Source: a virus (Duplodnaviria > Heunggongvirae > Uroviricota > Caudoviricetes). From it: a DNA stretch of 51,464 nt. Position 1 is the first letter of the stretch; each line of letters starts with the position of its first letter. This document shows, piece by piece, positions 39,001 to 42,000 of the stretch. The stretch lies in IMG/VR virus record IMGVR_UViG_646311923_000011. One strand, 5' to 3'. A program made the position numbers.

Positions 39001-42000
39001 AATGCCTCTGGACACAAGATGCTTACGCGCTACAGCCTGTTGTTCAAATGTAAGTCCGGTTTCGTGTTGTATCTCTTCACGCGTTTTATGTACGCCTTCC
39101 GCTGCATGTGCTTTATCCTGCCAGTAAAAAATCTGACCAAAGAAAATAACAGCGTGCGGACTTCCCATGTATTTAACGAGCCCAGGGTAATAAGCAACCG
39201 GATGCCCAAAATCGAGCAGAAGATCAGACGGACGCATAGCCACCTCCCAGGCGCTTAAACATTTTCCCGGACTGAAAAGCCACCAGCGGATAACTCCGGG
39301 TATGAGTACGTCCCTGAACCTGGCAGACAACCTTCTGGCTTTCTGTATTGACTAGGCAAACCCGCAGAACGTGGCCGTTGCTGGTGGTGAACCACTGCCC
39401 CACACGGGGGCAACGGTTGTATCGGTGATACAGGGAATTAACGATGTAGCGGATCATGGACGCACCTCCGCCGTAGTTACGTATTTAACCGGGCTACCTT
39501 TCATTGAGATGGTTTCACACATCTCTGCCGCTTTCAGTTCCGCCGTTTTTCTGGATTTATAGCGACGGTGCCAGACAGATACATCCGTGCGAACTGATAC
39601 ATCGTTTCTGTATTCCGTAGTGGAGATGATGATTTCGTAACTAATCATGGGCGCACCTCCCATTGATTACGGTGGAAATCGGTGTGATTCAGACCGGTTT
39701 CAGCTTCATGGAATACTTCAATGCAGCTCTCGTAGTACCGCATTGTGCGCAGACTTAACCCAAGCTGAAGCATCATCAGACCATCAAGGGTTATGTAATA
39801 ACCACGCAAAGAGTCACCATAGAGGTGATAAGTGCACGGTATGAAATTGCGGGTAAAAAATTCGCGCGAACAGTTCAGATACTCGATTTTATCGACGATG
39901 TTCTGGTGCATTCGCTTAAAGTGGCAGGCGACATGCAAAGAGAAAATAACGGCCTTGCCGTTGACGCTCTCAATTTTGAGGAATGAGTGGGTTGGGACTG
40001 TAGCCATGATGGCAGCCTCCTTGATCGGTGAAATACTTCCACCACCGGAAACGCCAATTTCGCTGGTGGTGAACTGAACGGGGTTGGCGTAACCGGTGAT
40101 CAAGGAAACCGGCGCATCTTTCGATGCCCCCGCCCAGCCCACCATAACTTTGATGTGAGCAAATGCGGACGATAAAAAAGACGCTGGCGCGTCATATATC
40201 GCCTTGATCAATTCCAGGACGCCAATCCCGGCACCCGCTTTATAAGGTGCAGAGACAGTGTAACGTCCCGAAATTGCAGAATCAATATTTGGTCTTGAAA
40301 TGATCATATAGCTGCTGATATCTTTAGAACTGTTCTTGGATGTTTCGGAGCCGTTTTATGCGAAACAGCTCCCCGTTATTGATGTTGAGTGAGCCGGGTT
40401 ACTCCCGGCTTTTTTTCACCGCTGCCAACCAATAACCTGAAATAACCCCATTTTCGGGTGATACCAGCGAGTCCCTCGCGGTTCTGCTTCCTCCATAACC
40501 CGATAAAAAGCAGCCATAAACGGTTCCACAGCAACAATTGCGCGACGTGACAACAATCCGTCCGACGTCATGAACTCGTGGGTGTCTGTAGGAATTTGAT
40601 AAGCGTTCACCAGATTGCAGCATTTATCATCTGACAAACCGGTTTTCGCTTTCAGTTGGCGATATCCGGCATAGCCCTCACGAATGGTGCCCTTTTTGAT
40701 TTGCTCGACTGTTTCGGCAACATGGCTGACTTTTTCTTCCACCTGAGTGATCCGTTTCTGCTGACGAACGGCTTCAAGAGCCATCGCAGCAACCATTTCG
40801 ATTTCGCTCATTGGCTTACGGATCTGTTCTTCCAGTTCGCGCCAGCGATCTACCAGGCGGGCAGTGAATTCAGGGCAGAGCTGTGCGACGACAATGATGC
40901 TGTCGCGTTTACCTTGTTCTCCTTCAAACAGGTAATGCTCATATTGAACTTTAAAACCTAAGTTATTGATTTTCTCGGAAACAGCCATTGGCGGTTTCCG
41001 GATGATGTTTTTAGCAACCAGGCGTTCGATACTACGTTTAACATCTGAGTGCTGACTACCCACCAGCTCTGCGATCTCAACGCTGGTCATGGATGCTTTT
41101 CCGTTAAAAATTGCGGTGTTCACTACCATCTCCTTGCGGATAAATTCTTTTAAGATTCCGCACATTCGTACTTATTGGTGCCGAACCTTCCTTCAGTTAT
41201 CCTTTTGATCTCTATAAACAAAAGAACCAAAGGAGGTTCGACATGAAAGTTCAGGCCGTTGGTTTATTCTGGTTTCGCGATGCGATTCAGTATCATGAGC
41301 TCAAAAATATTTTTACTGATGCTGATGTGCTCTCCGACAGTTACACCGAGTGGAAGCACGACGCTGAAAAATTGATTAAGCGTGTCGAAAGAGGCGGGCA
41401 ACGAGTTATTAAAGTTGAAGCGGATACAGCCGAGTTCATCGCCTGGTGTACAAGCGAAGGCATCGGAATCAATGCCGAAGGTAGAATGCAGTTCGCATCC
41501 TTTAAGGCTTACCAACAACTTCTCAGCGAACGCTAATGTGATTGGGGCAATCGAAATGGTTGCCCCATCGTATTTAATAGTTATTTTTTCGCTCATATCA
41601 CCACCATCACTTCCCATCTTCCGTGTGCGCTAGGCTTGGATTTGAAATTTTGCGTAACGAATCAGGAACTCCATCTTCAGGGTGAGGATAAAGATCTGGC
41701 CTTAAGCCATGTGGTGTGACCTTCCATGCAACTACTTCACATACGCGTAAAACAAAACGAGCAGGAATTGTGTTTTTTGAAAACCATTGATTCACCGCTT
41801 GCGGCGTCACACCAAGATTTCGCGCTATGGCATTTTGCGCAATTAATGTACGAAGTTTGTCGTAATCATTTCCTTTCATAACAAAGCACCAACATTAACT
41901 TTATAAATCAAGAATACATCAAGTTTAAATTAACATGCAAGTTGCAAAAGGATCGAATACACTAAAATCAAGTAAAGATTTATCCTTGTAAAGAAACCCA

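Follow-up and report, generated by a model that had tools for sequence, protein, structure and literature searches.

A candidate plus-strand small RNA gene in the rha-isrK spacer of lambdoid prophages

Results

The spacer between the rha gene and the isrK-C4 cassette was analysed in a 51,464-nt stretch of viral DNA (Caudoviricetes; IMG/VR record IMGVR_UViG_646311923_000011), which is called the window below. Inside the minus-strand early operon, the spacer carries a self-contained plus-strand promoter, here named P+, and an intrinsic terminator; a preliminary description of the sequence had proposed this arrangement, and the gene map, the promoter tool and a strict terminator scan all bore it out. 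Judging from these signals, we lean towards regarding the spacer unit as a real small RNA (sRNA) gene of the sar/oop kind, an independent plus-strand transcription unit. That some plus-strand transcript ends at the terminator is considered likely. The positions of all the features are collected in Table 1.

The plus-strand terminator and promoter

The terminator hairpin (40392-40410) contains seven perfect pairs, or eight when the flanking G-T is counted, with the folding energy of -14.5 kcal/mol. The T run (40410-40416) comprises seven T, six of them past the stem, so that the preliminary reading of a canonical plus-strand terminator, AGCCGGG-TTACT-CCCGGCT-T6, was confirmed. The final T (40416) also belongs to the rha stop codon, being the first letter of its plus-strand reading TCA (40416-40418). 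For minus-strand transcription, the hairpin has A7 in front and CACTCAAC behind; the terminator is therefore one-way and serves the plus strand only.

The strict scan covered both strands of the whole 51-kb window and required a perfect stem of at least 6 pairs, at least 5 GC pairs and at least 6 T. Four intrinsic terminators were detected, including the present one, against 0.03 expected from first-order Markov-random sequences. Another of them (42714/42715) is located right after the cI-like repressor gene. The remaining two, at 5688-5709 and 6366-6383, are both on the minus strand. In a generic terminator scan, the spacer site was the second-ranked terminator-like site of the region. The T run had 6-8 T in every locus that was retrieved without reference to it.

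The promoter tool read P+ as TTGAAA, an 18-nt spacer and TATCTT, with TG at -15/-14 (40295-40324; 9 of 12 matches). A weak promoter of the form TTGAAA-17-ATATCT had been suggested earlier at 40295-40323; the site proved to be a top-ranked match, whereas the -10 call was replaced by the extended TGaTATCTT behind an 18-nt spacer. The scoring with a rough sigma-70 position weight matrix (PWM), based on the hexamer frequencies of classical compilations, placed P+ 7th among 102,848 window positions; when 2 bits were added for an extended -10, it was 2nd. The divergent promoter of isrK (PisrK) was ranked 4-5 in the window. The counterpart of PisrK in Gifsy-1 is active in vivo (PMC4825925), although with hexamers that differ from those of the window, and the equally high rank of P+ was counted for its being a real promoter. 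P+ lies 70-120 nt upstream of the terminator on the same strand. The occurrence of a top-ranked promoter just upstream of one of the four strict terminators is far beyond chance.

The predicted RNA

The promoter and terminator signals predict an RNA of about 85-90 nt that would start at 40329-40332 and stop within the T run. The preliminary description had likewise envisaged a short plus-strand RNA, the length of which, 90-100 nt, is corrected here. Two of its other statements were not upheld. The RNA was said to cover the 3' coding end of rha, but it would lie wholly within the rha-PisrK spacer and overlap rha by 1-2 nt, in the stop codon only, as the T run ends at 40416. It was also said to be antisense to a 220-aa gene, but there is no overlap between the predicted RNA and this open reading frame (ORF; 39645-40307, minus strand), which ends at 40307.

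The predicted RNA folds into two hairpins with -28 kcal/mol (z = -2.7). The 5' motif, GUUCUUGGAU in RNA spelling, was defined post hoc from the allele alignment and is mostly unpaired in the centroid fold. The features of an Hfq-type 3' end are present, as the U7 tail (6-8 U across the loci) is preceded by the U-rich linker UUAUUGAUGUUGAGUG; the linker segment GTTGAG(T/C)G is kept across the alleles.

Coding explanations for the spacer were rejected. The plus-strand ATG frames of the predicted RNA cross the terminator, have no Shine-Dalgarno (SD) sequence and are not conserved in alleles B and C. On the minus strand, neither an SD sequence nor a start codon was found within 40329-40416, and no ORF start was accepted in the spacer: the nearest ATG (40307), that of the 220-aa ORF, lies outside the RNA and is without an SD sequence. 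The first codons of this ORF vary non-synonymously between the alleles. No convincing LexA, IHF or CsrA motifs were noticed at the locus by inspection by eye.

In the proposed mechanism, the extended -10 sigma-70 promoter would fire away from PisrK and produce a non-coding RNA of about 87 nt, composed of a single-stranded GUUCUUGGAU, the middle hairpin, the U-rich linker and the terminator with U7, and ending at the rha stop codon. The most probable mode of action would be that of a base-pairing regulator of the sar/oop kind. The only guaranteed partner would be the complementary rha-isrK intercistronic stretch of the early transcript from the PR promoter. The partner transcripts would be those that read from PR through rha into the cassette; the terminator scan found no minus-strand terminator between cro and the isrK terminator. 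A duplex in the spacer could undergo cleavage or could break the link between rha and the isrK-C4-anti-repressor and replication genes downstream. The pairing of lambda oop leads to such cleavage or uncoupling at cII. With its conserved 5' motif and an Hfq-type 3' module, the RNA may equally well act in trans on host mRNAs, in addition or instead.

Distribution and alleles of the spacer unit

A 701-nt query was partly matched in 1,347 of the 5,426 complete E. coli genomes, the isrK-C4 cassette being mobile. In other contexts, the homology of the cassette ends at about 40286-40290. The plus-strand terminator was not found in SfV, e14-type prophages and a Salmonella phage, where a DUF4222 gene abuts PisrK. 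The unit is also absent from Gifsy-1, in which PisrK (TTGACA-18-TATATT) overlaps the antQ stop codon without a spacer. Beside the rha homologues of Yersinia, Providencia, Proteus, other genera and Stx1 phages, the next gene directly adjoins and there is no unit. As the unit is missing beside other rha homologues and beside other isrK cassettes, the 125-nt spacer appears to be a discrete, insert-like segment that is part of neither neighbour.

The unit was present in about 236 of the complete E. coli genomes (allele A in 203, allele C in about 30 and allele B in 3) and in nine deposited phages with the T run intact, seven of which are Stx2a/Stx2d-converting. It was found on viral and metagenomic contigs as well, always between this rha allele and PisrK. 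The search of 2.25 Mb of fetched loci by nhmmer with the allele alignment resulted in 201 matches, all at the rha junction, and thus no paralogues away from it were found in these loci. E. coli 90-3040 (NZ_CP027459.1) was identical to the window in a comparison of 701 bases (window 39950-40650), and SE11 (NC_011415.1) is a carrier of allele C. When viral and metagenome sequences were scanned with the terminator, the rha end or the promoter plus the motif as anchors, no alleles beyond A-D were obtained, the last of which is the phiP27-type allele described below.

The identity between alleles A, B and C is 97-98% in the flanking rha and 84-93% in the cassette, and about 65% in the RNA body. The signals are kept selectively. 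The 45 signal positions, i.e. those of the -35, TGn, -10, 5' motif, terminator stems and T run, were identical at 43-45 positions across the three alleles. For the other positions (promoter spacer, initial transcribed region, body and loop), the corresponding values were from 43/70 to 52/73. The Fisher p values for this difference are about 2e-5 to 3e-6, with the 5' motif having been recognised from the same alignment. The -35 of P+ is identical in A, B and C, and the -10 region of B and C, TGgTATTTT, has a PWM score equal to that of A. All 10 positions of the 5' motif are identical while the flanking positions diverge. A middle hairpin occurs at the same place in the three alleles with different stems: GGAGC...GCTCC in A, GGC-CUGC...GCAG-GCC in B and GGC-ACUUC...GAAGU-GCC in C. 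Four single stem substitutions, two of them in terminators, keep the pairing on the plus strand only (loci L030/L031, L225, L068 and L196).

Table 1. Positions of the features of the rha-isrK region. Positions refer to the window unless stated otherwise.
Feature	Position	Strand	Evidence
-35 hexamer TTGAAA of candidate promoter P+	40295-40300	+	sequence, promoter tool, PWM
Extended -10 TGaTATCTT of P+ (-10 hexamer 40319-40324), 18-nt spacer	40316-40324	+	promoter tool, PWM
Predicted small RNA, ~85-90 nt	~40329/40332-~40416	+	predicted from promoter and terminator positions
Conserved 5' motif GTTCTTGGAT, candidate seed	40332-40341	+	allele alignment
Middle hairpin GGAGC-c-GTTTT(atgc)GAAAC-a-GCTCC	40347-40372	+	folding
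U-rich linker CCGTTATTGATGTTGAGTG ahead of the terminator	40373-40391	+	sequence
Intrinsic terminator, stem AGCCGGG/CCCGGCT, loop TTACT, T7	40392-40416	+	sequence, scans, folding
C4 antisense RNA	40062-40149	-	Rfam RF01695, 82.3 bits (gathering score 45)
isrK sRNA	40174-40250	-	Rfam RF01394, 64.2 bits (gathering score 50)
PisrK: -35 TTGATT (40285-40280), 17 nt, -10 TACACT (40262-40257)	40257-40285	-	by eye and PWM
rha/roi-type gene, 235 aa (RefSeq), Rha domain, PHROG 'anti-repressor Ant'	40416-41123	-	annotation, domain searches
97-aa gene, phrog_4753, SD AAGGAGG, between cro and rha	41243-41567 (with hairpin)	+	window map
cro-like gene	41607-41879	-	window map
cI-like repressor gene with its own terminator	42007-42702	+	window map
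Predicted sar-like antisense RNA, ~60 nt, covering the SD sequence and the GTG start codon of the Bro-N gene; terminator at the rha stop	3213-3330 of L032 (phiP27)		

Weighing of the proposed sRNA gene against other explanations

Several observations weigh against the presence of a functional sRNA gene. The literature covered, namely reviews and transcriptome papers as well as full texts screened for the hairpins spelled as DNA and as RNA, contained neither a published RNA at this position nor expression data on the candidate. No Rfam family was matched on the plus strand at the candidate RNA at the gathering score. The carriers are all closely related E. coli prophages, which makes the conservation a weak test, and mosaic recombination could mimic a part of the conservation pattern. 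The hairpins are strand-symmetric, and selection on the middle hairpin may act on either strand: in allele A this hairpin has -10.7 kcal/mol on the plus strand and -13.5 kcal/mol on the minus strand, and two substitutions of allele A keep the pairing on the minus strand only. There is no convincing target for the candidate RNA within the phage. Allele C does not retain the predicted pairing with IsrK, and the isrK alleles assort independently of the spacer alleles. Finally, the window RNA covers no ribosome-binding site (RBS), wherefore a sar-type mechanism cannot apply directly.

One rival explanation is an element of the sense-strand mRNA, in which the hairpins would stabilise the rha 3' end or form an RNase III site and the plus-strand signals would be incidental. 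Besides the substitutions and the energies of the middle hairpin mentioned above, this explanation has in its favour that the minus-strand fold of the region is stronger (z = -5.1 vs -2.7) and that the rha stop codon is immediately followed by the hairpin of the terminator. However, both a top-ranked promoter and an unbroken T6-8 run would have to be present on the other strand by two independent coincidences, the rha homologues in other contexts do not have the hairpins, and the four other substitutions keep the pairing on the plus strand only. A sense-strand element is therefore regarded as very unlikely. RNAalifold was uninformative on a MAFFT alignment, in which the 3' arm of the terminator falls out of register because of an indel in the loop.

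The targets were considered for the phage itself. The complement of the 5' motif was found in the window only at the locus itself, and the best duplex with a translation initiation region had -11.8 kcal/mol, which equals the expected maximum of 144 candidates. IsrK was rejected as a partner: with its first 30 nt the candidate reached -29.4 kcal/mol (0 of 500 shuffles), yet the pairing was not significant with the whole body. No conserved complementarity of the candidate to IsrK or C4 was found. The origin of the unit by duplication of isrK was also rejected, as no significant repeats were found between the spacer and the cassette. Plus-strand Rfam matches up to E 10, namely sroD (24.5 bits), PrrF and SorX/Y, were dismissed as sub-threshold and terminator-driven.

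The lack of a target in the phage agrees with a terminator that acts as an insulator only, halting antisense transcription into rha, cro and PR, with the RNA as a targetless by-product. Such plus-strand transcription could originate from the divergent promoter or from further left. The terminator is indeed strong, one-way and positioned exactly at the gene boundary, and P+ stands back to back with a constitutive promoter. Such an insulator leaves unexplained, however, why a top-ranked extended -10 promoter is intact across the alleles and why the 10-nt motif and a hairpin are kept amid drifting neighbour positions; dropping the promoter would be a simpler route to avoid antisense transcription. 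We consider the insulator explanation unlikely, and the sRNA gene is preferred to it.

The phiP27-type allele and a possible origin of the unit

In phiP27-type phages (allele D), the same rha allele ends in an alignable hairpin, GGCCGG-N9-CCGGCC, followed by TTTCTTATTT in the same orientation. The terminators of alleles A and D align with p = 0.02. The next gene of allele D is a Bro-N-type anti-repressor gene, and TTGATT-18-TGaTATTGT is located within its first dozen codons. The promoter architecture CTTGA-N17-TGATAT is common to allele D and the window, and the PWM score of the allele D promoter is 9.2, or 11.2 with the bonus. Only in the phiP27-type allele would the RNA be complementary to the RBS of an anti-repressor gene. 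In allele B, the sense strand around the promoter resembles the first phiP27 Bro-N codons at 14 of 20 positions, as judged by eye.

These similarities hint that the unit may have originated from a sar-like RNA that covered the RBS of a since-lost Bro-N anti-repressor gene. From the sequence comparison it is plausible that a deletion removed the target gene of a sar-like unit, which so came to adjoin PisrK. It could be argued further that the unit is merely what was left of the sar-like gene after the deletion, maybe still transcribed and with no present function. The architecture of allele D, its alignable terminator, the allele B resemblance and the uncovered RBS in the window all agree with such a relic. 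Still, the bodies of A, B and C have diverged by about 35% and the signal positions are nevertheless kept, which argues for continued selection; the spread of the unit among the genomes and the nine phages with intact T runs also speaks against a relic, which leaves unexplained why it is the promoter and the 5' motif that are retained. A functionless relic is thus thought improbable, and a working sRNA gene of this descent is favoured.

Neighbouring genes and RNA genes

The gene order of the region is cI (+), cro (-), the 97-aa gene (+), rha (-), the candidate (+), isrK/C4/ant (-), and then an O-like, a DnaC-like and a helicase gene (-), which is a lambdoid prophage map. The full rha ORF extends over 40416-41165, while the RefSeq start is at 41123. 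The 97-aa gene is followed by an 11-bp hairpin (41543-41567) with a T-rich tail on the plus strand only, and together they form a second plus-strand unit set against the early operon, which was counted in favour of the candidate.

The isrK-C4 stretch is an anti-repressor cassette of the P1 immI / Gifsy-1 IsrK type with its own promoter. A sub-threshold Rfam match to the c4 a1/b1 target element lies over isrK, and the C4 segment 40079-40098 shows complementarity with isrK (40219-40230) as well as with the downstream leader (40043-40057), in line with the way the P1 immI region works. The start of isrK, G at 40250, was taken from the 5' end of the Rfam model. PisrK and P+ stand back to back, with their -35 hexamers 9 bp apart on opposite strands and the start points about 80 bp apart. 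The Gifsy-1 counterpart of the cassette, a PisrK-isrK-orf45-anrP unit, has been studied experimentally (PMC4825925). The Gifsy-1 isrK locus (L259 34131-34329, minus strand) matched the Rfam C4 model with 69 bits and the c4-a1b1 model, overlapping isrK, with 48 bits, which identifies the IsrK system as a c4 module of the P1 immI type.

The 220-aa ORF is annotated in RefSeq as 'ash family protein' and has matches to Pfam Phage_ASH (aa 16-106) and to a C-terminal Rha domain. The Phage_ASH match lies over the isrK and C4 RNA genes, and it is possible that it reflects the translation of conserved RNA genes. The view of this ORF as a plain protein-coding partner of the antisense RNA was accordingly abandoned, as it largely consists of the two RNA genes and a Rha-domain anti-repressor. 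The latter probably starts at the in-frame ATG 40145 or at ATG 40007 behind AAGGAGG; these sites were read from the sequence and the ORF map, with support from the PHROG match. The ATG 40145 corresponds in position to orf45 (icd-like) of Gifsy-1.

Some further observations concern more distant parts of the window. The best sigma-70 match of the window, TTGACA-17-TAATAT, is located at 42765-42793 (+), just past the cI terminator. It precedes a gene for a protein with two helix-turn-helix motifs (42847-43539), the best PHROG match of which is 'CII-like regulator' (phrog_4836). Two inverted copies of 1,312 nt, 44350-45661 and 47264-48575, are 100% identical and flank 1,602 nt; each has an apical loop-internal loop (ALIL) frameshift pseudoknot of an IS3-family insertion sequence, and the arrangement is composite-transposon-like. 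An STnc100 sRNA (104 bits) adjoins a tRNA cluster Arg(tct)-Arg(tcg)-Met(cat) at 32003-33193 (-).

Discussion

If the unit is transcribed, three small RNAs (IsrK, C4 and the new one) would be encoded within 360 nt around a divergent promoter pair, and, for a phage lysis-lysogeny or anti-repressor switch, the region would rank among the densest RNA-control nodes on record. The carrier prophages are medically relevant, as they include Stx2a/Stx2d-converting phages and prophages of ST131. The annotation of the 220-aa ORF as an 'ash family protein' hides the RNA genes, and hence antisense and small-RNA signals of this region are to be read against the RNA map and not against the ORF map.

A more specific role is conceivable, though doubtful: the immI-type anti-repressor switch might have a third riboregulator in this RNA, or the RNA might be an Hfq sRNA aimed at the host, with a conserved seed and an allele-specific middle hairpin in either case. 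The seed would then address a common target, while the middle hairpin would give heteroimmune-like behaviour between co-resident prophages, a combination that we would not expect to hold. The loops of C4 confer allele-specific behaviour on P1 and P7. The carriers concerned would be prophages of ST131, avian pathogenic and enterotoxigenic E. coli (APEC/ETEC) and Stx2-converting phages.

Comparison with known systems

The preliminary description had likened the unit to lambda oop, and the position and orientation support this. Lambda oop is about 80 nt long, has its own promoter and intrinsic terminator, runs in the cI direction and is flanked by the regulator gene after cro and by the replication genes, and the candidate has the same placement. 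The likeness does not extend to the overlap with the upstream coding end or to the sequence. As judged from the lambda sequence and the position of its terminator, which is well inside cII, oop overlaps about 50 nt of the cII coding sequence, whereas the candidate reaches only the rha stop codon; moreover, the upstream gene in the window is Rha/Ant-like and not CII. The blastn-short comparison with lambda 38300-38800 gave only chance 7-9-mers (E >= 0.2). It might still be supposed that the unit is a true oop homologue that represses the upstream gene through its 3' coding end, as it is placed and oriented like oop with respect to cI, cro and the replication genes. With the overlap of 1-2 nt, no similarity to lambda oop, an upstream gene of the Rha/Ant type and the only CII-like PHROG match (phrog_4836) right of cI, we find true homology highly improbable.

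AgvB and AsxR are convergent prophage sRNAs of enterohaemorrhagic E. coli (EHEC; Tree et al. 2014, PMC4104026). Like the candidate, they are short prophage RNAs directed against a phage operon, with conserved and variable parts and an Hfq-type 3' end. In their related copies the conserved part is the terminator-proximal 3' part, whereas in the candidate the 5' end is conserved and the middle is variable. They are also shorter (51-60 nt) and are located in the late region downstream of PR'/Q, in contrast to the candidate of the early right operon. Neither was among the Rfam matches for the window. The Pas sRNAs and AgvB/AsxR/EcOnc were rejected as the identity of the candidate, as their loci are in late or tail regions; EcOnc22 (about 85 nt), known from a peak of Hfq cross-linking and analysis of cDNA (CRAC) in Sakai, lies between tail genes in Sp15. 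Sakai is not among the carrier genomes listed.

The C4 RNAs of P1 and P7 and IsrK of Gifsy-1 resemble the candidate in that an anti-repressor is under RNA control, and their relatives are its neighbours within the same 360-nt stretch. The candidate differs in being on the other strand and outside the mobile cassette, the boundary of which is at about 40286-40290.

P22 sar is a closer architectural analogue than oop. According to Rfam and the deposited annotation, sar (599-532) fills the arc-ant spacer from one base after the arc stop codon (529-531) to one base before the ant ATG (600). Both are short RNAs against an operon, located in a spacer beside an anti-repressor gene, with the 3' end abutting the stop codon of a regulator gene. 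The phiP27-type allele has the same layout as sar, with the promoter inside the first codons of the anti-repressor gene. In the window, by contrast, no RBS is covered, since what follows is the isrK-C4 cassette, which has a promoter of its own. The U tract of sar is much poorer than that of the candidate terminator. With the sar covariance model RF00262, the P22 control scored 97.8 bits, and the window gave no match at the gathering score or with E up to 10. Since phage antisense RNAs beside anti-repressor genes have been known from sar and C4, the general principle is unchanged. By its kind, the candidate would belong with sar, oop and the convergent EHEC prophage sRNAs.

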